NCBI GenBank assembly: GCA_040905465.1
Contig: JBBDRK010000036.1
Location: 1 to 24,471, forward strand
Length of the DNA stretch: 24,471 nt
Source of the DNA: Trueperaceae bacterium
GTDB lineage: Bacteria; Deinococcota; Deinococci; Deinococcales; Trueperaceae
Direction of reading: 5' to 3'
Position numbers and translations under genes: made by a program. Below, in pieces: positions 584 to 24,471 of the stretch; the stretch's first letter is position 1; each line of letters starts with the position of its first letter. The notes beneath the pieces are model-generated. The model had not been told where the DNA came from and did no database searches. It worked only from the letters and a program-made list of their open reading frames with translations.

Positions 584-1102
584 TCAACTGTCGTCTGCCT
601 CCGTCACTTCACCCGTCACGCCGTCCACCAGAACTGTTCCCTGGGCATTACCTTGCCGATATTCGACTTTGACATTGCCGTCGTCAACCGTTACTCCGAC
701 GATCTCGACCGGCGTGACCTCGTCTCCCGACCGGCCGACGACGAAGGCTCTGGCGAGGGCTTCTATCGTCCGCGCGTCAAAAGCGCCGGGAGGCCGATCG
801 CCAACCATCATTCCGGGCGTCCCCATGCCGCCCATGCCATTCATTCCCATGCCCTCATGATCATGAGGGCCTTCCTCTGCGTGCATCCGCTCCATCAGGC
901 TCATGCAGTGCATCATCATCTGCATCATGCCTTGGTGCCCGCCCATTGCGCCCTGCATCGAACCCTGCCCCATCGGCATCCCATTCATGCCGGCCGGGGC
1001 TTCCGGCTCCGGATCGTCCATCGGGCCATCCTGAGCCAAGGCAGAACTAACTGCCAAGACGGTAAGCGCGATAGTCAGTGCTTTTCCGACTCCAAGATTC
1101 AT
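584..1102 (-). CDS. Secreted Met/His/Gly-rich protein with a C-terminal PepSY-like domain (putative metal-binding protein)
   Basis: It has a signal peptide ending SSALA-Q, a central MNGMPMGQGSMQGAMGGHQGMMQMMMHCMSLMERMH...HDHEGMGMNGMGGMG tract, and a C-terminal VKVEY...VLVDGVTGEV PepSY-like end. A GAAGGG SD-like sequence lies upstream. Confidence 0.7.
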   Translation of the reverse strand: MNLGVGKALTIALTVLAVSSALAQDGPMDDPEPEAPAGMNGMPMGQGSMQGAMGGHQGMMQMMMHCMSLMERMHAEEGPHDHEGMGMNGMGGMGTPGMMVGDRPPGAFDARTIEALARAFVVGRSGDEVTPVEIVGVTVDDGNVKVEYRQGNAQGTVLVDGVTGEVTEADDS

Positions 1103-1161
1103 GGCGATTCCCTTCAGGTACTGTCATGCTCGGAATAGACTCCGGGCGTGCCTATCGAGTG

Positions 1162-1194
1162 AGCTTAGGCAAACAATGTTTAGCCAGGATAAAG
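1162..1194 (-). promoter_or_regulatory. Direct-repeat response-regulator box plus -10 element (site A), upstream of the Met-rich protein
   Basis: The minus strand reads CTTTAT cctgg CTAAAC attgtttgcc TAAGCT, the same geometry as sites B-D. It overlaps the kinase stop codon. Confidence 0.65.
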
Positions 1195-2352
1195 ACGCAC
1201 CGGGTCGTTGACAGGAATTTGCGTGGTACTGCCCGCTACGAGCGGCAGCGTGAACCAGAAGACGCTCCCTACACCTACGTCGCTGGACGCCCCTATCTGG
1301 CCCCCCTGCCGCTCTACGTAATGCTTTGCGATGGTAAGACCGATGCCGCTCCCTTGCTTGGCTACGTGGGTACGAGCCTTATCGGCACGATAGAAGCGAG
1401 TGAACAGATGCGGGAGGTCATGCTCGCGGACTCCCTCTCCAGTGTCCCGAACCTCGAACCTCACGGAGTCGTGCTCTTCCTCGGCCGACACCGTCACTTC
1501 ACCCCCGGACGGGGTGTGCATGAGGGCATTATCCAGCAGGTTCGCAAGCACTTGGGCCGTACGCTGCGGGTCGGCCACAATGACAGACCTCATCTGAGGG
1601 TCCACAACCTTGAGTGCAACCCCGTTCTCTGAGTAAGCCGGTAGAAAGGTTGCATCCGCCTGTTCGAGCAACTCCGAGACGAGCAGCTTGCGAGGCTCGA
1701 GCTCCTCCTGGCCCGTCTCCACTCTCGACAGAAGCGAGAGATCGGCAATCAGCCTCTCGAGCCTGCCGAGTTGCCGTTCGCAAGCCTCGAGGGTGTCTCC
1801 GTTCGCCTCGAACAGGCCGTCCCGCAGGCCAGCAACGTACCCCTTCAGGCTAGTGAGCGGGGTCTTGAGCTCGTGCGCGACGTTGGAGAGGAGTTCGACC
1901 CGCCGCGCCTCGGTCTGCTCCAACGACTCCGCCATCTCGTTGAACGCCGCCGCCAGGTCGCCGATCTCGCCGGGCGCCTGCACATCGAGCCTCTCACGAT
2001 ACTGCCCGGCGGAGATGCGCCGGCTCGCCCGCTGCATCTTCCGCAAGGGAGCGACGATCCGCTGGGTCACAAAGAAACCTACAGAACCCGCCACCAGAGC
2101 AGACACCGCCAGCCCCCATAGCATCGTGCTCTGCGAGGCTTGCCGGTAGGCGGCATCGATGTCCGCCGACATCGCTTCCATCATCGGGCTCATATGGCGC
2201 ATCTGCTGGATCATCCCGCCCAGGTGCCGGTCGAGGAAGAACGTCGCGAAAGCCTCGCCCACCCAGTAGAGGGTGGTGCAGACCACGAGGATCACCAGCA
2301 GGTAGGAGGCCAGCAAGCGCCAATACAAGCCCGGGTTACCGGTAGTCCTCAT
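1180..2352 (-). CDS. Sensor histidine kinase (HAMP-HisKA-HATPase; BaeS/CopS-like) with a Met/His-rich extracytoplasmic loop
   Basis: It has two TM helices, a HAMP domain (GEIGDLAAAFNEMAE), an H-box (VAHELKTPL), an N-box (NLLDNAL), and G-boxes DTGEG, FTRFYR and GSGIGLTI. Its start overlaps the regulator's stop by 4 nt. Confidence 0.95.
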   Translation of the reverse strand: MRTTGNPGLYWRLLASYLLVILVVCTTLYWVGEAFATFFLDRHLGGMIQQMRHMSPMMEAMSADIDAAYRQASQSTMLWGLAVSALVAGSVGFFVTQRIVAPLRKMQRASRRISAGQYRERLDVQAPGEIGDLAAAFNEMAESLEQTEARRVELLSNVAHELKTPLTSLKGYVAGLRDGLFEANGDTLEACERQLGRLERLIADLSLLSRVETGQEELEPRKLLVSELLEQADATFLPAYSENGVALKVVDPQMRSVIVADPQRTAQVLANLLDNALMHTPSGGEVTVSAEEEHDSVRFEVRDTGEGVREHDLPHLFTRFYRADKARTHVAKQGSGIGLTIAKHYVERQGGQIGASSDVGVGSVFWFTLPLVAGSTTQIPVNDPVRLYPG

Positions 2353-3035
2353 AAGGTCTCCTCACTGAACCTGTACCCGACGCCGCGCACCGTCTCGATC
2401 AGCGACCGCCCGTTGCCGCCTTCCAGCTTTTGCCTCAACTTGAAGATGTGCACGTCCACGACCCTGTCCACTCCCACGAAGTCTCGCCCCCACACGCGGT
2501 CCAGAAGTTCGTTTCGGCGAAACACCCGCCCCGGATGCAAAGCCAGGATTCGCAAAAGCTCGAATTCCAGGGGGGTCAGAGGGATATTCTGGCCTGCCAC
2601 CACTGCCTTCTGTTTCTGCAGGTCGAGGCACAGGTCGCCGGCCTGCACCGTTTCGTCGTCTTGCTCTATGCCGCTGCGGCGTAACACAGCCTGAACCCGA
2701 GCCACCAGTTCCGGCGGATGGAACGGCTTGGGAACGTAGTCGTCGACGCCCGAGCGGAAGCCTTCAATGCGGTCCTCGTGTTCTCCACGAGCGCTCAGCA
2801 TGATCACTGGAGTCGCCAGGGAACCACGTAGCCGGCCCAACAGCTCGATGCCATCCAGGCCGGGCAGCATCCAATCGAGGACGATGAGCCCCGGGGGGTC
2901 GACGAGTGCCTTCTGGAGACCGTCGAGTCCGTCATGCGCAAGATCGACCGAATATCCTTCGTGTTCCAGATAAGCCCTTACCACTCGCGCAATGTCCACG
3001 TCATCCTCGATGACCAAGATGCGTTGCCTCGTCAC
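2349..3035 (-). CDS. OmpR/PhoB-family DNA-binding response regulator
   Basis: The receiver domain shows ILVIEDD, LDWMLPGLDG and DDYVPKPF. The winged-helix domain shows LTPLEFELL, VDVHIFKLRQKL and ETVRGVGYRF. Confidence 0.96.
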   Translation of the reverse strand: MTRQRILVIEDDVDIARVVRAYLEHEGYSVDLAHDGLDGLQKALVDPPGLIVLDWMLPGLDGIELLGRLRGSLATPVIMLSARGEHEDRIEGFRSGVDDYVPKPFHPPELVARVQAVLRRSGIEQDDETVQAGDLCLDLQKQKAVVAGQNIPLTPLEFELLRILALHPGRVFRRNELLDRVWGRDFVGVDRVVDVHIFKLRQKLEGGNGRSLIETVRGVGYRFSEETL

Positions 3036-3047
3036 GACCCCATCCTA
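3033..3047 (-). promoter_or_regulatory. Leaderless-type -10 element directly upstream of the response regulator start
   Basis: The minus strand reads TAGGAT ggggtc GTG, a TAnnnT hexamer 6 nt before the start codon with no clear SD. Confidence 0.5.
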
Positions 3048-3096
3048 GGTGAAGACCAGATGACTTGTGCGCCCAAGGCAACACTCACTCCGCCAA

Positions 3097-3129
3097 CTAA
3101 TAGCAGGCTCGTATGAAGCTCCGGTAAAG
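3097..3129 (-). promoter_or_regulatory. Direct-repeat response-regulator box (site B), upstream of the two-component genes (autoregulation)
   Basis: The minus strand reads CTTTAC cggag CTTCAT acgagcctgc TATTAG. The -10 is imperfect (G at position 6). Confidence 0.55.
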
Positions 3130-3220
3130 GTCGTTGCGAGCAGTCGGGGGAGTGATCACCGTAGGCAACGGAAGTTTTCCGAGGTGCCTCAGCTACACGC
3201 TCCGCCTGCTCCGGGCCAGC

Positions 3221-3253
3221 CTTTACGCTCGCTTAACGGAGCGGCTTTACGCT
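3221..3253 (+). promoter_or_regulatory. Direct-repeat response-regulator box plus -10 element (site C), upstream of SCO
   Basis: The plus strand reads CTTTAC gctcg CTTAAC ggagcggctt TACGCT. Confidence 0.7.
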
Positions 3254-3329
3254 GTCGGGCGGCCTGGCCGATTTCTTACGGTCTAATTAGGGGCAACGGG
3301 TCGGACGTCTTTCGAGAGCGGTGGTAGCA

Positions 3330-4001
3330 ATGATCATGAAAACGGGATGGCTTCGGGCGCTCTTGGCGATCGGCGTACTTGCGCTGATCGCGATAGCGGC
3401 GGTGACGGCATATACCGTGGCGGGCCGCGACAGGCTCAAGCTCAACGGCACCGCCATAGATAATCCCCCAGGGGTCCAAGACGTTACGCTTTTGGGCACC
3501 GACGGTGAGACCGTCCAGCTCGGCAGGTGGGAGGGCGATCTCCTCCTGGTCTTCTTCGGATACGCCCACTGTCCCGATGTATGCCCGCTCACCATGGCCC
3601 GCCTGGCCCGCACCTACGAGGAGCTCGGAGAACCCGAGGATCTGCAGGTCCTCATGGTCACAGTCGACCCCGACAGGGACACCCCGGAGCAGCTCGAGAA
3701 GTACGTCCAGCGCTTCCACCCCGACTTCGTCGGGCTCACGGGCACACCCGCGATGATTGCCGACGCATCCGCCCGCTTCTATGTCGCTTCCATAGGGGCG
3801 GACACGAATCCCGGCGGAAGCGTATCCCACTCGAGTCACGTGACGCTCGTAGACCGTGAAGGGCGAATGCGGCTCATCTACAACCAGGACAAGATCGGCG
3901 ACCTGCTCAAAGAAGACCTCGGCACCCTGTTGGCACAGCAGCAAGGCACCCGGCAGCAATATCTTCCCGGTACGCCTTATGCTCGTGTTCACATGCCGTG
4001 A
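3330..4001 (+). CDS. SCO1/SenC/PrrC-family copper chaperone
   Basis: It has an N-terminal TM helix, FFGYAHCPDVCP (CxxxC), VTVDPDRDTPE and VSHSS with the conserved His. The start is uncertain (GTG 3321, ATG 3330 or ATG 3336). Confidence 0.93.
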   Translation: MIMKTGWLRALLAIGVLALIAIAAVTAYTVAGRDRLKLNGTAIDNPPGVQDVTLLGTDGETVQLGRWEGDLLLVFFGYAHCPDVCPLTMARLARTYEELGEPEDLQVLMVTVDPDRDTPEQLEKYVQRFHPDFVGLTGTPAMIADASARFYVASIGADTNPGGSVSHSSHVTLVDREGRMRLIYNQDKIGDLLKEDLGTLLAQQQGTRQQYLPGTPYARVHMP

Positions 4002-4546
4002 CTAAACCTGGTAGGCGCGGCAGCGAGAAAGCCGCGATCGTCTCTCTGCTCTTGGTCTTGCCCTTCCTCCAGTCGGCACTCGCCCACGGACCTCGAATCG
4101 AAGTGTCGAAGTTATGGGTCGTGACGACGGAGGAGGGAAAGTTTCTGGAGATGAGCCTCGATCCACCGGAAGAAGGCGCCGAACAGTTTGCGTTGATCGC
4201 CGTGTCGACCCCCTTTGGGCCTGCCGAGCTGGAGCAAAGGACGGTCGATTCTTATCAGCCGGTAGAGCGTATCCCGGCCGTACATGGGGCAGAACTGAGC
4301 GCCGAAACCCCATTCCGAGTTCGCCTGGCGACACCACTAGCCGTCAACGGATTACTCCCGGTGACCCTCCTGTTCAATGGAGGAGTGCTGCTGAGGGAAG
4401 AGATAATGACCGAGCCGACGACGAGCAGTAGTGTTGGACCGTGGGCGAGGGGAGCGGCCATAGCTGGCCTGCTGGCCATCATGCTTATAGCTGGGGCCTG
4501 GCGAGTACGGCGTGGCAAAGGCCGCCGCTTGAACGTCTTCCACTAA
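3998..4546 (+). CDS. Exported, C-terminally membrane-anchored protein resembling PCuAC but lacking the Cu ligands
   Basis: It has a signal peptide ending SALA-HG and a PCuAC-like strand pattern (IEVSKLWV, LIAVSTP..AEL, PVERIP, PLAVNGLLPVTLLF). A C-terminal TM helix is followed by a basic tail. It overlaps SCO via GTGA. Confidence 0.6.
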   Translation: MTKPGRRGSEKAAIVSLLLVLPFLQSALAHGPRIEVSKLWVVTTEEGKFLEMSLDPPEEGAEQFALIAVSTPFGPAELEQRTVDSYQPVERIPAVHGAELSAETPFRVRLATPLAVNGLLPVTLLFNGGVLLREEIMTEPTTSSSVGPWARGAAIAGLLAIMLIAGAWRVRRGKGRRLNVFH

Positions 4547-4794
4547 AGCAGGTCCCTCTTCAATCGCTCGAACTCCTCCCTGCCTATCTCGCCTCTTGCG
4601 TAGCGTGCCCGAGCAGCCTCGAGCGCCTCGTCGGAGCGGGTCTGGACCGCTCCGCCGGCTCCGCGGGGCCCGGTCGACTGACCGAACCGGTACGCCAGGT
4701 AGCCCACGATCACGAACAGGAGGATGACGAGCAGAAGTCCCAATCCCATCATCCCCAGGCCTCCCGCGCATCCCATCACTCCGTCGCCCATCAC
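4543..4794 (-). CDS. SHOCT-domain small membrane protein
   Basis: It has a Met/Gly-rich N-terminus, one TM helix, and the SHOCT motif ALEAARARYARGEIGREEFERLKRDL. Confidence 0.88.
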   Translation of the reverse strand: MMGDGVMGCAGGLGMMGLGLLLVILLFVIVGYLAYRFGQSTGPRGAGGAVQTRSDEALEAARARYARGEIGREEFERLKRDLL

Positions 4795-16627: not shown

Positions 16628-18460
16628 TCAGCTACGGCTCGAGAAGCGGTCGAGGGCGCGGTCGAGGTTGAAGGCCGCGCTGATCAGCCCCAAGTGGGTG
16701 AACGCCTGCGGGTAGTTGCCGAGCGCCTCTCCGCAGCGCCCGGTCTGTTCGGCGAACAGTCCGAGATGGTTGCCGTACCCCAGCATCTGCTCGAAGGTTA
16801 GGCGAGCGCGCTCCAGTCTCTCACGGTCGACCCGGCCCGCTCGGGTAAGAGCCTCCACCAACCAGAACGTGCAGATGTTGAAGGTGCCCTCCTCGCCTGA
16901 GAGTCCATCGGCCGATTCGCTGAGGTTGTAGCGGTAGACGAGGCTGTTGCTGACCAGTCCGCCCGACTCGGGCGGCTGCGATATAGCGTCGATGGTTCCC
17001 AGCATCCGCCGGTCTACGGGTGAGATGAACAGTACCAGCGGCATCATGAGCACGGCGGCGTCCAGCGCTTCGCCCCCGAAGCTCTGCACGAACGACTTCC
17101 GCTTTTCGCTCCATCCGCGCGTCATTATCTCCTGGTAGATCTCGTCTCGTGTTCGCAACCAGCGAGCGCGATCGGCAGGCAGTGAACGCTTGTCGGCCAG
17201 CCGCAACCCGCGGTCGACGGCCACCCAGCACATCAGTTTCGAGTAGACGTAGTCCTGCCGTCCAGCCCGGCTCTCCCAGACCCCCTCGTCCTTGCGGCGC
17301 CAGTTGTCGCAGACCCAGTCGACGAACATGCGCACCGAACCCCACAGGTCGTAGCTGATGGGTGCCCCGTACTTGTCGTAGAGGTAGACCGCATCGATCA
17401 GTTCGCCGTAGATGTCGAGCTGGAGCTGTTTGTGGGCGCCGTTGCCGACCCGAACCGGTTTGGAGCCGCGGTATCCGTCCAGGTGGTCGAGAGTCTCCTC
17501 GCTGAGGTCGGTCCGGCCGTCGATCCCGTACATTATCTGAAGCGGCCCATCGCCCGCGCTGGACTCCTGGCAAACCCCCGCCAGGAACTCCATGAACTCC
17601 CGCGCCTCCTCGGTGAATCCGATCCGCAGGAACCCGTAGAGGGTGAAAGCGGCGTCACGGATCCAGGTATAGCGGTAGTCCCAGTTGCGCACCCCGTCCA
17701 CGCCTTCCGGCAGGCTGCAGGTGGGCGCCGCCACTATCGCTCCGGTGGGTTGGTAGGTGAGCAGTTTGAGGGCCAGGGCAGAACGGTGGACGTATTCCCG
17801 CCAGCGGCCGGCGTAGCTACAGCCATCCAACCAATCGCGCCAGTAATCCACGGTTTTACGAAACAGCGCCTCGGCCTCGGCTGGAGAAGGAGCCTCGTGG
17901 CACTCCTGATCCGGCCCGAGCTCCTCCAGCAGGAATGTTGCGGAGTGTCCCTGTTCGAGCGTGAGCTCCGCCTCGACTCCGCCCTCGCAACGCTTCACCG
18001 GAACCGGGCAGCTAAGTCCAAGTGAAAGCTGACGACTCCGAAAGCAGGCACCGCTCCCCTGCAACTGCACTTCGTGTTCGTCGCGCCCGTAATCGAACGC
18101 CGGCAGGCAGCGCATACTGAAACTCACCGTGCCGCTGGCGGCCTCGACGGTTCGCACGATTCGTCTGCGGTCGCCGCCGACAGGCATGTAATCGGTAACC
18201 TCACCGACTCCCTCGCGCGACATGAACCTGGTCACCAGAATGTTCGTGCCCGGCCAGTAGAACTGCTTGGTCGCATTGCCCTCGGCCAGAGATTGGAGCT
18301 CGAAGCGCCCGCCCTTGCGGTCATCGAGAATCGCCCCGAAGACGCTGCCGGAGTCGAAGCGCGGCAGACAGCACCAGTCGATGGTGCCGTTGGTGTCGAC
18401 CAGCGCCAAACTGTGCATGTCGCCGATCGCACCGTGATTCTCTATCGCCTGATAGGCCAT
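16628..18460 (-). CDS. Glycoside hydrolase family 15 (trehalase/glucoamylase-like)
   Basis: A GGAGG SD precedes the ATG at 18460. It shows [45 protein letters not shown] and [13 protein letters not shown]. Confidence 0.96.
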
Positions 18461-18561
18461 ATACCTCCCGTGACGGCTGGCTCGCAAGGTTCTGCCCGAC
18501 TAGCCGTTCCAGGTCCTGGCGGTCGTATGGGCCCGTGGCGGAATAGCCGTCTCCGGGCGCC

Positions 18562-19431
18562 TCAACTCCTGGCCGCCACGCCACTCAGCAAGCCGCCCAC
18601 GGTCAACCAGTAGTAGACGATATAGCTTCCCGCCAGCAGCAGCAGCGCGGCGCTTACCGGTGCGATGTAGGGCACCGCCCGGCGGATCCTGTTCACCAGG
18701 GCATTCTGGAACACGGCAATGCTCAGCGTCAGCAACGTGATCACCAATCCCATGCCGACACCGTAGAGGAGGAGTTGCAGAACGGTGGCGGGCAGCGTCG
18801 TGAGGGTGAGCGTGCTGCCGAGAACCGCCAGGAAAATAGGCAGGGTGCAACTGAGCGAGGCGAGGCCGTAGGCGAGGCCGAAAGTGAAGTACCGGCCCGG
18901 GCCTTCGCCAGCGACGCCGGCCAGCGGCGTAGACAGTCGCTCTCCAAAGCGGGCATACATGGTGCCACCGGCGGCGAGCCAGGCGCCCGCCAGGATCAGC
19001 AGCACGCCGGTTGCGAAGCCGAGCCAGGGAAAACTGCCGGCCAGCCAGCGAGCGCCGGCGGAGATGGTGAGTCCCACGGCCCCGAACAGCAGTATGAAGC
19101 CGGCGGTGACCGCGACGCTGACGAACAAGGCCCGACGCAATCGGCCCAGCTGAGACTCCTTTTTGTCACTGGTGCCGGACAGGAAGAGTGCCAGGAAAGC
19201 GGGCAGCATGGCGAAGCCGCACGGGTTTGCCGCCGACACCATGCCCGCGCCGAACGCGAAACCGAAGGGGAGAAGAGTTGCGACCCGGTCGAGAACGGCG
19301 CTCGATGATCCCGACAGCGACTCCACGCCCACCACCAGGGCGCCAGATCCGCGGCCGGTCAGCAATGCAGCGACCACCGCCGCTATCGCGGCCAAGCCGG
19401 CCAGCACTACGAAGACGGTAGCTCGTTGCAT
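18562..19431 (-). CDS. ccdA: CcdA/DsbD-beta-family transmembrane electron transporter
   Basis: It is a polytopic membrane protein with AGMVSAANPCGFAMLP and SLSCTLP, the two redox Cys. The start is ATG 19431 or GTG 19446. Confidence 0.9.
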   Translation of the reverse strand: MQRATVFVVLAGLAAIAAVVAALLTGRGSGALVVGVESLSGSSSAVLDRVATLLPFGFAFGAGMVSAANPCGFAMLPAFLALFLSGTSDKKESQLGRLRRALFVSVAVTAGFILLFGAVGLTISAGARWLAGSFPWLGFATGVLLILAGAWLAAGGTMYARFGERLSTPLAGVAGEGPGRYFTFGLAYGLASLSCTLPIFLAVLGSTLTLTTLPATVLQLLLYGVGMGLVITLLTLSIAVFQNALVNRIRRAVPYIAPVSAALLLLAGSYIVYYWLTVGGLLSGVAARS

Positions 19432-19450
19432 ACGCGAGAGTGCCACGGGG

Positions 19451-20020
19451 TTACTCGCCGTCGGCGAGGAGGGTCTGGATCTCCTTGCGCAATCGGTCTT
19501 CGGGAAGGTAACCAGTGTGCTTGCCGGCGATGGTGCCATTGCGGTCGAAGAAGATGGTGGTGGGCATGCCACGCACTTCGAAGTCGCGAACAGGGCTGTC
19601 ACTCAGGGCGTAATAGGTGGGATAGTCGATCTCGAACTCGGCCAGGAACTCCCTGGCCTGGGCGTGGGATCCGAGACCGATGAAGGGCCCGATATCCACC
19701 CCTACCAGGGTGAACTCCTCACCCAACTCGTCGTGGATTCGTTGGAACCCGGGCATCTCCTGCCGGCACGGCGGACAAAGTGCCGCCCAGAAGTTGAGTA
19801 CCACCGGCTCACCGTTTCCCAACAGTTCGCCGAAGGTCAACTCTTTGGCTGCCTGGCCCTCACCTGTGTAAGGCACCATCGAGAAGTCGGGCGGACCGCC
19901 CTGCGGGGAGGACTTGACGGCCACGAAAACAGTGACCAACGTGATCACGGCCAGCACCGCCACGACCGTGAGAGTTCCCTTCCGATTTCCGCGTTTTCTG
20001 CGCGACTTCGGCTTGCTCAT
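19451..20020 (-). CDS. TlpA/ResA-family membrane-anchored thiol-disulfide oxidoreductase
   Basis: A GGAGGAGG SD precedes the ATG at 20020. It has a basic N-terminus plus a TM helix, PVVLNFWAALCPPCRQEMP and VRGMPTTIFFD. Confidence 0.93.
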   Translation of the reverse strand: MSKPKSRRKRGNRKGTLTVVAVLAVITLVTVFVAVKSSPQGGPPDFSMVPYTGEGQAAKELTFGELLGNGEPVVLNFWAALCPPCRQEMPGFQRIHDELGEEFTLVGVDIGPFIGLGSHAQAREFLAEFEIDYPTYYALSDSPVRDFEVRGMPTTIFFDRNGTIAGKHTGYLPEDRLRKEIQTLLADGE

Positions 20021-20202: not shown

Positions 20203-20430
20203 TCAGGCGCGAGCTATCACGATGCGCCACTCCGAGGAACCGACCTCCACAACCTCCAACACCTCGTGGCCGGCGCTCTCGGCCCAGCGAGTGATGTTGT
20301 CGAGTGCCAGGGGATAGTCGATCAGTACTTCCAGACGGCTGCCGGAGGCGAGCGCCTCGAGCTTCTTGCGAGCCTCGAACAGCGGGTAGGGGCAGATCTC
20401 GCCGCGGACGTCCAGGGTCTCTTGGGTCAT
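20203..20430 (-). CDS. TusA/SirA/YeeD-family sulfur carrier protein
   Basis: It is 75 aa from ATG 20430, with LDVRGEICPYP (CPxP motif), LEVLID and DNITRWA. It lies directly downstream of a YeeE gene. Confidence 0.93.
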   Translation of the reverse strand: MTQETLDVRGEICPYPLFEARKKLEALASGSRLEVLIDYPLALDNITRWAESAGHEVLEVVEVGSSEWRIVIARA

Positions 20431-20444
20431 GTCGGTATCGTAGC

Positions 20445-21470
20445 TCAATCTCCCGTGATCGCCGGCTGCGACTGCCGCTGAAATTGCCGCGCCGGCCTCA
20501 CGAACAGCCACCAGGAGGTAGCCCAGGCACCGAAGATGATGCTTGCCGTGGTCACCACGCTGGCCACCGAGAGCACGGACAGTCCGGTGAGGCTATGACC
20601 GATGGTGCAGCCTCCGGCGAGCTGCGCACCCAGGCCCATCATGAGTCCGCCGATTGCCGACTGCAGCAACCGCTCGCCCTTGGGAACCCGCCAGCGCAGC
20701 TCCTTGTGACTCGCCGCCGAAACGAAGGCACCCAGGAACAGGCCGACGATAAGGAATGCGCCCCAGTCGAGCGCCAATCCGCCCAGGAAGATGCCCTCGA
20801 ACCACACCCGCAGCGGCCCGGTCATGGACAGGCCGAAGTCGCGCCCGCTTGCCGCCGAACTCAGCCAGGCAGCGATACCCACGAATCCCAGAGTGAGACC
20901 TGAACGCTGCCAGCTCCAGCCGCCGCTGCGATATTTGCTTCCTCCGCTCCTGAAAAGCCACCAGCCCGCAGCCACCACCAGCGGAACCACGACCAGCCAC
21001 GAGTTGACGCCCAGCAGGTTGGCGAGCGTCAGCGACTCCCCGTCGGCGCCGATGACTCCGTTCTGCAGGGCCCGTTGTAGCGGCGCCAGTGCGCCGCGGT
21101 CCATCACCAGCAGTCCCGCACCGAAGGCGAGCAGGGCCAGGAGTGAACCCGACATGCCCTCCCCTACCCGGTAACAGGTGCCGCTGGAGCAGCCTCCTGC
21201 CAGCACCATGCCGGCGCCGAAGACCAGGCCGCCGAGCAGGTTGGCCGCCCACCAGAATGGCGGCACGCTGATCGGCAACAGTCCCAGGCTGTTCAGCGCG
21301 GTCACGCCCACCAGTTGCACCAGGACCGCCAGCGCCCACGCTCGGAACATGGTGCTGTCGGCGGTGAGCAGGACATCACGGAAGCCGGTGTTGCTGCAGA
21401 ACCGGCCACGCTGAAGCGCATAACCGAAGGCCAAGCCCACGGCCAGGCCCGAAATGACCAAGATTGCCAT
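20445..21470 (-). CDS. YeeE/YedE-family sulfur-compound (thiosulfate-type) transporter
   Basis: It is polytopic with three conserved Cys motifs: LQRGRFC, GMVLAGGCSSG and LAGGCTIGH. A GAGGAG SD precedes the start. Confidence 0.94.
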   Translation of the reverse strand: MAILVISGLAVGLAFGYALQRGRFCSNTGFRDVLLTADSTMFRAWALAVLVQLVGVTALNSLGLLPISVPPFWWAANLLGGLVFGAGMVLAGGCSSGTCYRVGEGMSGSLLALLAFGAGLLVMDRGALAPLQRALQNGVIGADGESLTLANLLGVNSWLVVVPLVVAAGWWLFRSGGSKYRSGGWSWQRSGLTLGFVGIAAWLSSAASGRDFGLSMTGPLRVWFEGIFLGGLALDWGAFLIVGLFLGAFVSAASHKELRWRVPKGERLLQSAIGGLMMGLGAQLAGGCTIGHSLTGLSVLSVASVVTTASIIFGAWATSWWLFVRPARQFQRQSQPAITGD

Positions 21471-21479
21471 CTTTTCTCC

Positions 21480-22388
21480 TCAGCGCCAGCAGACGCTGCT
21501 CGTTCGAGTGCTGGTGGCGGCGGGAGTCGACGTCTCCGAGATGGCGAAGCCCTCCTCCACCAATGCCGGGTACGGGTCTCCCAGTACGTGTATGTGCTCG
21601 ACCCCGTAGGCGGCCAGGACCAACCAGGCCAGAGCGGCCTGACCGGGAGTCGCTCCGTATACGAGGGGGTGGGTATCACGGGTGATCCGAGCCGGACCCA
21701 GCGAGCGGGACAGGACCGAGTACCGAGGCGGATCTCCGCCGGCGAGCAGCTCACTCACCGGCACATTCACGGCGCCCTCCAGGTGCCCTCCGAGATAACC
21801 CTCCCGCGCGCGTACGTCGATAGGAGCCACCTCGTTGGCGGCGATGTGGGCGTGCGCCTCTGCCGGCTCTACAACGAGCCGGCGATCGAACTCGAGCTCA
21901 ACCGGGCTGGCCTCCTGCTCGGGCGCGTAAGTCGTGCTCAACTCACCGCCTCTTGCGCTCCACGCCTGTACTCCGCCGGCCAGGAAGCGGGCGTCGAAGC
22001 CGAAGGCGCGCAGGACCAGCACCACCAGGGCCGCCTCTTCCCCGTCGCCGTCGTCATAAACCATGACCATGGCGCCCGGCTCGAGCCTCAACGGCCGTAC
22101 CGCTCGCTCCAGCTCCTCGGAGTCGGCCAGTGAGCCGGCGCTCTCCTCGAACGAGAGCAGATCCCGAGACCACAGGTGCCGGGCGCCCGGCAGGTGGCCG
22201 CGGCCAAAGGCCAGCGGACCACGTGCGTCGACCAGCGCGGCGGAGTCCGGGATTTCGCGCGCGATCAGCGCGTTGGCGTTGGGAAGGGGCCGATTCAGCT
22301 GCCACAGCCCCAAGCCGGCCGCGCCCAGAAGCAACGCAGCAAGCGCTATCTCGATCCCGACGGCGACCAATCCACGCCCGCTTCTCAT
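21480..22388 (-). CDS. Membrane-anchored tandem-rhodanese protein lacking an active-site Cys, with a single Cys on the C-terminal tail
   Basis: It has an N-terminal TM helix. Domain 1 reads VDAR..GHLPGA..VYDDGDG..LAGGVQAW and domain 2 reads IDVR..GHLEGA..VYGATPGQA. The tail is ETSTPAATSTRTSSVCWR. Confidence 0.85.
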   Translation of the reverse strand: MRSGRGLVAVGIEIALAALLLGAAGLGLWQLNRPLPNANALIAREIPDSAALVDARGPLAFGRGHLPGARHLWSRDLLSFEESAGSLADSEELERAVRPLRLEPGAMVMVYDDGDGEEAALVVLVLRAFGFDARFLAGGVQAWSARGGELSTTYAPEQEASPVELEFDRRLVVEPAEAHAHIAANEVAPIDVRAREGYLGGHLEGAVNVPVSELLAGGDPPRYSVLSRSLGPARITRDTHPLVYGATPGQAALAWLVLAAYGVEHIHVLGDPYPALVEEGFAISETSTPAATSTRTSSVCWR

Positions 22389-22535: not shown

Positions 22536-23729
22536 TCAAACCGGCCCGCAGCACCGGTCTGGGCAGCCCGCCGGGAAGGTGCGGCCCCCGGCCATCGCCA
22601 CACCCAACCGATGACCAGCGGCCTCGCGCTCGGGCAGCGCCGTGTTCAAGTTCACTACGCCCATCGGTCTGGCGCCGACCGGCAAGAGCTCGACGAGTTC
22701 GAACCCCGGCACGCTGACCACCGCTACCGCGTCGCGACCCGGCAAAGGCACGAAGAAGTGTTCGCCCTGACTGCCGAAGACGAAGCTACCGGTAAGCGGG
22801 TTGCTGCCCTCGGGGAACGAGACGTTGCCGACTACCTGATAACTGCTGGTGTCGACGATCGAGAGCTCAGAGGAGTCACGGCAGATAACCAGTCCGAAAC
22901 GGCCGTCGAGCGTGAACTCGCTCGTTATGGCACCGACACCCAGCCCATCGTCGGGGGTCAGCCTGGCAACTTCCAGGGGATTTGCCGGGTCCGAGAGGTC
23001 GAAGATCGACTCGCTTCCGGTCGTCGATCCGCCCTCGACCTTGGCGTTCTCTACGAAGAGGACGTTTCCGGTTGGCGAGACGGTCGCCATATACGGTTCG
23101 ACGGCAGCGCCGTTCAGCGACTCGACCGGGACGACCGTCGCCCGCTCGAACGGATCCAGCCTGACGGCCGTTATGGTATCGCCGCCGCGATCGGGGGCGT
23201 AAGCGAAGGCGCCGTCGGCCGTCACCGTCATGTCACAGGGGCTTGCTCCACCATAGGTGTCGAACTCAGCCGCGACCTCACCGAAGTCGTCGGCGGTCGG
23301 ATCGGCGGACACCTTCAGGAAGCGGTCGGCAAAGCGCGCCGCCACGATGAGGTGATTGCCGTCCGGCGCAAGTTCGGTGTAGTTCTGGCCCGAGCCGGTA
23401 GGAAGTTCGAGCACGCTCTCGCCTGTGGAGAGACGCCAAGCGTGCACGGCCTCGTTCGGTCCGCCCGCCCAGATGAGATCACGCTCAAAGTCCCAACGAG
23501 TGGCCGGAAACGAGTAGCTTCCAGCCAGCGGAACCGTCGCCAGCACGGTGAGGTTGTCCGGGTCGATGAGGCTGACGCTGGGAGCCACTCCGGCCGAACC
23601 GTCCCCGGCATTCGACACCACCAGCAGGTCACGCGCTTCACCCTGCGCGAGAGCGAACCCACGCCACTGGCCAAGTGCGACGGCCAGGCCGCTGGCGGCG
23701 GTGAGCTTGAGGAAAGTACGTCGTTTCAT
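22536..23729 (-). CDS. Tat-exported YncE/YVTN-like beta-propeller with a Cys-rich C-terminal tail
   Basis: It has a Tat motif (KRRTFLK) and an ALA cleavage site. Propeller blades include VSLID, LAPDG, VTADG, VSPTG, FTLDG and LPVGARPMGV. It ends GCPDRCCGPV. Confidence 0.82.
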   Translation of the reverse strand: MKRRTFLKLTAASGLAVALGQWRGFALAQGEARDLLVVSNAGDGSAGVAPSVSLIDPDNLTVLATVPLAGSYSFPATRWDFERDLIWAGGPNEAVHAWRLSTGESVLELPTGSGQNYTELAPDGNHLIVAARFADRFLKVSADPTADDFGEVAAEFDTYGGASPCDMTVTADGAFAYAPDRGGDTITAVRLDPFERATVVPVESLNGAAVEPYMATVSPTGNVLFVENAKVEGGSTTGSESIFDLSDPANPLEVARLTPDDGLGVGAITSEFTLDGRFGLVICRDSSELSIVDTSSYQVVGNVSFPEGSNPLTGSFVFGSQGEHFFVPLPGRDAVAVVSVPGFELVELLPVGARPMGVVNLNTALPEREAAGHRLGVAMAGGRTFPAGCPDRCCGPV

Positions 23730-24471
23730 GATTCGGCCTCCAATTCAACAGGGGTGTCTTCGCGGTTACCCCACTCGCCCCAGGAGCCGAGGTAGAGCCT
23801 CGTTCCCGGGTGTCCCAGCATCTCCAGTACGGCAGCGGTATGTGCCGCCCTGACGCCGCTCTGACAGTACACGATCACCTCCGGCTTCTCCAGAACGGGT
23901 GCGAGCAAGTCCCTCAGCTCCGTCTCCGGTCGCAAGCGCAGTTCAGGAGTCAGCGCCAAAGTCCAGGGGAAGAGCAAAGCACCCGGAACGTGTCCGCCTC
24001 TCCGGGCCGCTATCAACTCGCCGCGGTACTCCTCCGGCTCACGAGTATCGACTATGGCGACGTCGGCGTCGTCCAGCCGGCTCAACAACTCCTCCGCGGA
24101 AACGAGACGATCCCGATCGGGCTCTCCTGAACCCAGGTAGCCTGCAGGCGCCACCTCCGGCCTCGCCAGGCCAGACGATTTAGCCTCCGCCTCGATCCCG
24201 CCGCTCGCGCCCTCGCTCGGGGATCGTTCGGGCCCGCCGACGAGAGCTTCGCCGTCCGCCAGCCAAGCCTCGACACCTCCGTCCAGGAGACGCGCGCTCC
24301 GCAATCCGTAGCTCCGCAGGGTCCACCACAGGTGAGCCGCGTCGGCTCCGCCACGAGCGCCGTAGAGCACGATGTCTCTACCCTCGTATCTATCGGCGTC
24401 CCAGTCGGCCTCCCAATCGGCGTCTGCGAGCCAGTTAGCGCTGCGCCGAAGCTCCGCCCGGCGAACCAGAC
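23726..24471 (-). CDS. Tandem-domain rhodanese/sulfurtransferase (5' partial)
   Basis: The frame is open to the window edge. It shows LWWTLRSYG..RLLDGGVEAW, IVDTREPEEY.G, GGHVPGA, the catalytic loop VYCQSGVRA and LYLGSWGEW. Its stop overlaps the propeller start (ATGA). Confidence 0.92.
   Translation of the reverse strand, partial: LVRRAELRRSANWLADADWEADWDADRYEGRDIVLYGARGGADAAHLWWTLRSYGLRSARLLDGGVEAWLADGEALVGGPERSPSEGASGGIEAEAKSSGLARPEVAPAGYLGSGEPDRDRLVSAEELLSRLDDADVAIVDTREPEEYRGELIAARRGGHVPGALLFPWTLALTPELRLRPETELRDLLAPVLEKPEVIVYCQSGVRAAHTAAVLEMLGHPGTRLYLGSWGEWGNREDTPVELEAES

Follow-up and report, generated by a model that had tools for sequence, protein, structure and literature searches.

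The YeeE/YeeD (TsuA/TsuB) systems are among the closest described counterparts of the locus considered here. In E. coli, YeeE works with YeeD in complementation, and the available passages of the report name no outside partner (PMC11073785); nor do the available parts of two accounts name an outside accessory for TsuAB (PMC7449682, PMC11073785). In S. thermophila YeeE, free thiosulfate is hydrogen-bonded and the cysteines lie about 7 Å apart (PMC7449682, PMC11582611). For the SoxT channels of the same family, SoxY has been proposed to hand over the sulfur (PMC11237559, PMC11582611), and for Hyphomicrobium SoxT the passage of sulfur from the SoxY Cys, via the channel cysteines, to a cytoplasmic rhodanese or TusA has been called "conceivable" (PMC11582611). 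In clusters of the phsABC-pmpA/B-sulfurtransferase type, the gene for a rhodanese-like protein adjoins that of a YeeE-family channel, as at the present locus, or is fused to it, and what the sulfurtransferase genes beside PmpA/B do is called unclear (PMC9324843). Indeed, the cargo of the YeeE/SoxT channels and its delivery from outside are stated to be open, with free thiosulfate, polysulfide, or protein-bound sulfane as candidates (PMC11582611, PMC9324843). The operon described here resembles TsuAB in that its YeeE has the same three channel cysteines and vestibule Arg and is followed by a TusA-family gene; unlike TsuAB, it has three further conserved genes ahead of YeeE. As a five-gene operon with one single-Cys candidate donor, it makes the delivery question directly testable.

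The candidate donor has the rhodanese fold, as does Sud, a soluble single-domain protein with a canonical active-site Cys that is thought to serve a membrane sulfur protein; the candidate differs from Sud in being tandem and in having no active-site Cys. Sud of Wolinella succinogenes is a periplasmic polysulfide-sulfur transferase (PMC4288042). The tandem sulfurtransferases RhdA of A. vinelandii (1e0c), the T. thermophilus protein 1uar, and SseA (1urh) and YnjE (2wlr) of E. coli have the same two-domain fold as the candidate (Z 25-27) and share with it the N-domain Asp and GHxPGA-type motifs. However, the candidate has no domain-2 Cys, and has an extra N-terminal membrane helix and a Cys-Trp tail. 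A review sorts rhodanese domains into four classes (PMC10135228); as these are laid out in its available passages, a protein with two inactive domains falls outside all four (PMC10135228). In the literature searched, which was mainly open-access, no rhodanese that lacks the catalytic Cys and bears a terminal Cys arm is described.

The gene for this protein, hereafter the query, occupies positions 21480..22388 (-) of the window, by which we mean the whole stretch of 24,471 nucleotides of Trueperaceae DNA that was analysed. Its 302-residue product is a tandem rhodanese-fold protein: Pfam PF00581 matches it with 84.2 bits (cut-off 22.2) in two stretches, and the structure model aligns with 1e0c over 244 residues (Z 27.1, rmsd 2.3). 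In the alignments to PDB 1e0c and 1uar, Asp112 (22053..22055 (-)), which is invariant in the close-homolog alignment, coincides with the Asp that is normal at the inactive N-domain position, and Gly245 (21654..21656 (-)) coincides with the catalytic Cys of domain 2. Thus, the Cys of the Cx4R/T motif in domain 2 of active tandem sulfurtransferases (TST/MST, SseA) is missing from the query, and both rhodanese domains are predicted to be inactive by the usual criterion. An earlier note, made from the sequence alone, had read domain 1 as a normal N-domain with Asp, domain 2 as carrying Gly (GGA) where the neighbouring paralog has Cys, and Cys300 as the only Cys among the 302 residues; all of this stands, the paralog reading VYCQSGVRA and the translated open reading frame containing the single Cys.

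Selenocysteine, at residue 245 or at the stop, was considered and rejected. The Gly245 codon is GGA in the query, and again in a short contig of low depth that comes from another sample of the same study (X2 record 11), and GGG or GGC in four relatives; the stop after CWR is TGA in the query and TAG in one relative. Since the relatives use other Gly codons and one ends in TAG, neither position hides a selenocysteine, and the stop codon after CWR is genuine. Other assignments were also negative. The query scores 34.9 bits with NCBIfam SseA, below the cut-off of 250, and does not match NF040901 (ExtH selenite/tellurite rhodanese, cut-off 200), for which the distant family member P0198 reaches 56.8 bits, also below cut-off, the best E value among the 11 distant members being 1.5e-18. 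PF13501 (SoxY) does not match the query, PF00581 being the sole Pfam match, and a search of the ESM Atlas returned generic rhodanese clusters only. By these comparisons the query belongs to the rhodanese superfamily, does not have the feature by which active sulfurtransferases are defined, and is not a SoxY.

Most structural matches to the query stop at residues 285-290, and therefore the tail is an addition to the rhodanese fold. The last 20 residues are 50% Ser/Thr, and the earlier note was right to call the tail Ser/Thr-rich, but "low-complexity linker" does not describe it fully. Residues 291-301 are the best-conserved segment of the protein, with a mean column agreement of 0.88, where the two domains reach 0.70-0.72 and residues 283-290 reach 0.51, and the block 291-300 has an AlphaFold pLDDT of 68 and 74 in two runs. 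Consequently, the tail is better described as a short variable spacer followed by a conserved motif, residues 291-302 (A-T-S-T-R-T-S-S-V-C-W-R; 21483..21518 (-)), than as merely a floppy linker. Within the motif, Cys300 (21489..21491 (-)) is present in every one of the 43 family members that were aligned, down to 22% identity, and none of these 43 has a selenocysteine (Sec) variant of the tail. Against four relatives, the tail has a dN of 0.04-0.12, a rough value from 12 codons, and the gene as a whole has 0.24-0.44, at a dS of about 0.8 or more; by these values the motif is under purifying selection.

A tail of this kind recalls SoxY, whose arm carries the motif GGCGG. The query differs in its unrelated fold, its S-S-V-C-W arm, its predicted membrane anchor, and the lack of any SoxY match in the source genome (G000). 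What the two would share is an arm at the C-terminus that lies outside the cytoplasm and bears one conserved Cys, described for SoxY of SoxYZ (PMC11237559, PMC11582611) and predicted for the query. For the SoxY comparison drawn in the earlier note, the query offers its invariant C-terminal Cys, in a different motif, as a candidate sulfur-binding site; it fails on fold, on GGCGG, and on gene content, so that the likeness is an analogy only.

Loss of the catalytic Cys and possession of the tail go together among the homologs. A first search gave 38 proteins, 32 of them close (44-92% identity) and 6 weak; every close homolog for which the source gives a taxon is from Trueperaceae. It had been suggested that loss of the domain-2 Cys might co-vary with a conserved terminal Cys, and that close homologs with the catalytic Cys and without the tail Cys would instead speak for simple decay. 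The opposite of the latter was found: all 31 close homologs with a complete C-terminus (the 32nd is truncated and was left out) have lost the catalytic Cys, with Gly in 30 and Ala in 1 at position 245, and have the S-x-C-W tail. Sensitive and profile searches added three more Trueperaceae-type proteins (P0040-P0042, of which P0042 is partial) and 11 distant proteins of 22-32% identity, which end in S/T-T-C-W or S-L-C-W and have Ser or Gly at the domain-2 catalytic position. In a profile-profile comparison, the close and distant groups match from end to end, in the anchor and the tail as well, with E 1.7e-49. On these results the family is real, under selection, and apparently undescribed.

A wider set (184 proteins of 230-360 residues, kept from 310 fetched) has a tail Cys in 1 of 109 proteins with the catalytic Cys and in 51 of 73 without it, the site not being covered in 2 of the 184; the rows are related and were picked by likeness to the query, so the comparison is not a test of independence, and among the 51, P0179 is unrelated and six are cluster-mates of others. 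Both cysteines are missing from 22 of the 73, so the catalytic Cys can be lost in a protein that has no such tail. No YeeE is found among the called neighbours of four tail-less, Cys-less relatives. Lipoprotein-like tandem rhodaneses at L105, L106, L110, and L113, whose catalytic position is Gly or Ser and which lack the tail Cys, lie remote from sulfur genes. With the tail left out of the alignment, FastTree places the two tailed groups apart with weak support; IQ-TREE, on 50 of the 176 rows, brings every Cys-less group to one side, with support of only 66, and makes the Trueperaceae group sister to the tail-less lipoproteins at 94. In wider searches, the S-x-C-W ending occurs in 0 of 80 metagenome loci among the matches listed; the phylum of G364, covered by 401 genomes, yielded 7 matches, of which the six viewed at the domain-2 loop are ordinary Cys enzymes; and a plasmid search gave no match of at least 60% identity, the 15 listed being at 31-36%.

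The tandem family is rare, the query gene being present in 5 of 364 genomes of its phylum. In all 5 intact Trueperaceae genomes that have it (G000 and four others, a small and related sample from three genera), the gene order is active rhodanese, Tat beta-propeller, query gene, YeeE, TusA. The YeeE of this type is found in 6 of 128 family genomes, the five operon carriers and a relic in G289. The gene following the query (20445..21470 (-)) encodes a full-length sulfur transporter of the YeeE/TsuA family (PF04143, 251 bits) in which Cys25, Cys94, Cys288, and Arg210 correspond to C22, C91, C293, and R215 of S. thermophila YeeE. Next comes a sulfur carrier of the TusA/YeeD family with a CPYP motif (20203..20430 (-)); both proteins score under the NCBIfam TsuA/TsuB cut-offs.

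Upstream of the query gene lies the beta-propeller gene (22536..23729 (-)), whose product has a Tat signal, an invariant Cys165, and a C-terminal CPxxCCG, and is a candidate outside sulfur donor or redox partner. Cys165 and CPxxCCG are invariant in its 93 homologs, and matches occur in 20 of 128 family genomes, a tally that includes the unpublished G324. Among 14 further propeller loci that were fetched, 12 intact loci and one broken copy have no rhodanese and no YeeE nearby. In one genus, the propeller gene adjoins URO-D-like, creatininase-like, and UxaA/SAF-like genes, to which L192 adds a flavoprotein and a ferredoxin. The outermost gene (23726..24471 (-), running past the end of the window) encodes the active-type tandem rhodanese paralog with VYCQSGVRA. 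The G000 assembly gives no uninterrupted reading of this paralog, and its N-terminus was read separately; neither there nor in four relatives is an export signal present. Since it has no signal peptide, the paralog is predicted to be cytoplasmic and is likelier an inside acceptor than an outside donor. At L097, an active tandem rhodanese carries a TusA-like domain fused to its C-terminus.

Which side of the membrane the query faces is suggested by its N-terminus, and topology prediction, proposed in the earlier note, gives an anchor oriented N-in/C-out. A short basic N-terminus precedes a hydrophobic helix (about residues 6-31; 22296..22373 (-)) with a largely conserved Glu13, and both structure models show an anchor helix at residues 5-31. 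The orientation is predicted from the models, hydropathy, flanking charge, and the Tat-type motifs of distant homologs. The charge bias around the helix is small (+2 vs +1), and the N-terminus of the query, MRSGRG, has no twin Arg. The pair RR is kept in 10 of 34 Trueperaceae-type sequences, several of the others being truncated at the start; a twin Arg precedes the hydrophobic stretch in 12 of 12 distant sequences, and the full Tat-type motif [ST]RRx[FL][LI] is present in 7 of the 12. Because the distant homologs mostly have twin-arginine N-termini, the rhodanese domain likely faces outward. Export would have been by Tat ancestrally, the source genome having a TatC gene, and is perhaps by Sec in the present protein.

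The explanation that we find probable, though by no means secure, is that the query acts as an arm tethered in the membrane and facing outward, on which Cys300 would bring sulfane sulfur to YeeE, the acceptors inside being TusA and the paralog. The tail Cys would take up sulfane sulfur outside the cytoplasmic membrane, either directly from polysulfide or thiosulfate or from the Cys-rich Tat beta-propeller, becoming a persulfide or S-thiosulfonate, and would present it to the outer vestibule of YeeE. The tip of the tail would come to lie near YeeE Cys288, docked there by its Trp and its small Ser/Thr residues, and the rhodanese body would be a spacer or binding scaffold. On the cytoplasmic side, TusA and the signal-less active rhodanese would receive the sulfur. 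This explanation is supported by the fixed gene order with YeeE-TusA, by the loss of the catalytic Cys, and by the invariant tail Cys and motif. Counted against it are the missing twin Arg and small charge bias of the query, the 12 intact propeller loci without rhodanese and YeeE, and the sufficiency of YeeE and YeeD in E. coli, as far as the available account goes (PMC11073785). The binding of free thiosulfate and the 7 Å spacing reported for S. thermophila YeeE argue against direct Cys-to-Cys transfer (PMC7449682, PMC11582611). A membrane-tethered protein serving YeeE is also what the earlier note had proposed, and this part of the proposal gains from the predicted anchor, from a gene that always precedes YeeE-TusA, and from YeeE fusions elsewhere. 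Its other part, in which the paralog loads the tail, finds no support, given the lack of a signal peptide in five genomes and the predicted location on the opposite side of the membrane; if the topology is as predicted, the active paralog cannot be the outside donor.

The tail might instead fold back onto its own protein, Cys300 entering the pocket left empty by the change of Cys to Gly or Ser, as a mobile, relocated catalytic Cys that shuttles between the anion-binding loop of the query and YeeE. With a deeper alignment, the pLDDT of the tail block is 74/73 rather than 68/43, which is more than a free tail would be expected to show; seven distant members keep a loop of the form Ser-x-x-G, which resembles the active Cys-x-x-G; and about 15 residues could span the distance to the cleft. 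A precedent is CstB, in which a mobile Cys loop serves a rhodanese site (PMC12934615). However, loop 246-249 is poorly conserved in the Trueperaceae group (0.41-0.66), and the Arg of the Cx4R/T motif (PMC10135228) is lost from it. We regard this arrangement as unlikely, if worth keeping in view.

The genes beyond TusA bear on a redox or assembly role, in which Cys300, by forming a mixed disulfide, would protect, gate, or reset either YeeE Cys288 or the CPxxCC tail of the propeller, an adjacent thioredoxin pair would reduce it, and no sulfur would be carried. Following the operon in the window are a membrane-anchored TlpA/ResA-like thioredoxin with a CPPC motif (19451..20020 (-)) and a membrane protein with two Cys-Pro motifs (18562..19431 (-)), which has no Pfam, NCBIfam, or PDB match and which we take to be CcdA-like. 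Each is adjacent in 2 of 5 operon genomes, the TlpA-like gene following the operon in G000 and G288; the two genes (18562-20020) adjoin the operon in this genus only. A single exposed Cys in an oxidising compartment would suit such a role, the Glu that is conserved in the anchor hints at a partner within the membrane, and inactive rhodanese domains are regarded as mediators of protein interaction (PMC10135228). Nevertheless, the thioredoxin pair is missing from 3 of 5 operon loci, and all other conserved members of the operon except the propeller belong to families of sulfur transfer or transport, which leaves this role rather unlikely.

An improbable arrangement is the inverse of the favoured one: the domain would be cytoplasmic, and the tail would collect sulfur at the inner mouth of YeeE and hand it on to TusA and the active paralog. 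The tail would then share a compartment with TusA and the signal-less paralog, and a relic in the single-contig genome G289 (L199:6396-7494) can be read in its favour. There, one open frame joins the query-type anchor to YeeE residues about 18-101 and most of TusA, so that the anchor stands in frame at the place of the first YeeE helix, which is read as running from outside to inside. But the join sits in a relic with several deletions, that of the propeller being out of frame, and the basic N-termini throughout and the Tat-type motifs of the distant homologs point the other way. The relic may represent decay, a minimal half-YeeE-TusA fusion, or an assembly artefact.

The gene content of the source genome (95% complete) bears on where the sulfur might go. 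It has cysK, selD, and tatC, and no match to SoxY (PF13501), PAPS reductase, nitrite/sulfite reductase, or Sbp/CysP. Because genes of sulfate reduction and SoxY were not found there, the sink for sulfur delivered by the tail Cys from outside would most plausibly be the synthesis of cysteine and thio-cofactors, and uptake of reduced sulfur for biosynthesis fits this gene set. Lack of sulfite reductase was tried as a mark of the operon carriers and dropped, as it is the norm of the family (105 of 128 genomes). No polysulfide reductase was found; the single NrfD match presumably belongs to alternative complex III. The presence of selD raises the thought of an operon for selenium or thiophilic metal(loid)s, in which the tail Cys would bind selenite, selenide, or metal. 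In the source genome, selD adjoins a rhodanese-domain gene, and the relatives of YeeE include selenium-linked families, to which the NCBIfam matches are weak. But selD occurs in 64 of 128 family genomes and was not matched in the complete, operon-bearing chromosome G290 (98%), so a link between selD and the operon was discarded. In addition, among the NCBIfam models the YeeE scores best with those for thiosulfate TsuA (253 and 202 bits), ahead of those for selenium (102 and 39 bits), every one of these scores lying under cut-off, and the 43 aligned members include no Sec tail. A selenium or metal function is therefore very improbable. The probability that the query is simply a redundant rhodanese in decay, with an incidental tail Cys, is close to nil: an active paralog lies two genes upstream, and the operon is patchy (5 of 364 genomes) and decayed in G289, but whole-gene dN is well below dS, and the low dN of the tail, lowest of all, the 31 of 31 close homologs, and the presence of Cys300 in each of the 43 rows, even at 22% identity, rule it out.

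The favoured explanation, delivery of sulfur to YeeE by an outward-facing tail Cys, finds a parallel in another phylum. A search with the operon YeeE of 201 genomes of the phylum of G367 gave 8 matching genomes, and 4 of the 8 YeeE-like loci (L227, L229, L231, and L232) end in a single rhodanese-like domain that lacks the catalytic Cys and has a terminal Cys. This domain is separate in L227, where it was identified by eye, and in L229; it is fused to a YeeE half in L232 (a weak Pfam match) and probably also in L231 (no Pfam match; read by eye). Active tandem rhodaneses with signal-like N-termini are present at L227, L228, L229, and L232 (4 of the 8). Among 301 genomes of the phylum of G365 (the same set as for G364), a single close YeeE was found, beside TusA and DsrE, with no dead rhodanese. 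The single-domain type has one domain, a basic tail ending in GC or GGC, and a split YeeE, often accompanied by a reductase or by an active rhodanese that is exported; the query has two domains, an S-V-C-W-R tail, and a full-length YeeE, and its operon also encodes TusA, the Tat propeller, and an active rhodanese that lacks a signal. Thus, the two would be alike in apparent working only, and the fusions to YeeE halves, of a different architecture from the query, lend support by analogy to action on the channel. The split YeeE locus of L231 comes after a molybdopterin reductase operon.

If the favoured explanation is true, the rhodanese fold has been reused, with the reactive thiol moved to a tail, apparently convergently. 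A broader proposal, which we offer tentatively and which may well prove too wide, is that YeeE-family channels are served from outside by a class of donor subunit not described so far, a dead rhodanese whose arm is tipped with Cys, built at least twice: as a single domain with a basic GC tail and a split YeeE, and as a tandem protein with S-x-C-W and a full-length YeeE. Such donors would fill the role of SoxY without Sox, and the Tat propeller with its CPxxCCG would be a new periplasmic loading enzyme.

Elsewhere in the window, a GH15 trehalase-like gene is intact at 16628-18487 (-) and apparently interrupted in a relative of the same genus, at L001:11155-13385. Positions 584-4794 hold what we take to be genes for a Met/His-rich small exported protein, a two-component pair, a SCO-like protein with CxxxC, and a small membrane protein, a set that suggests copper handling.
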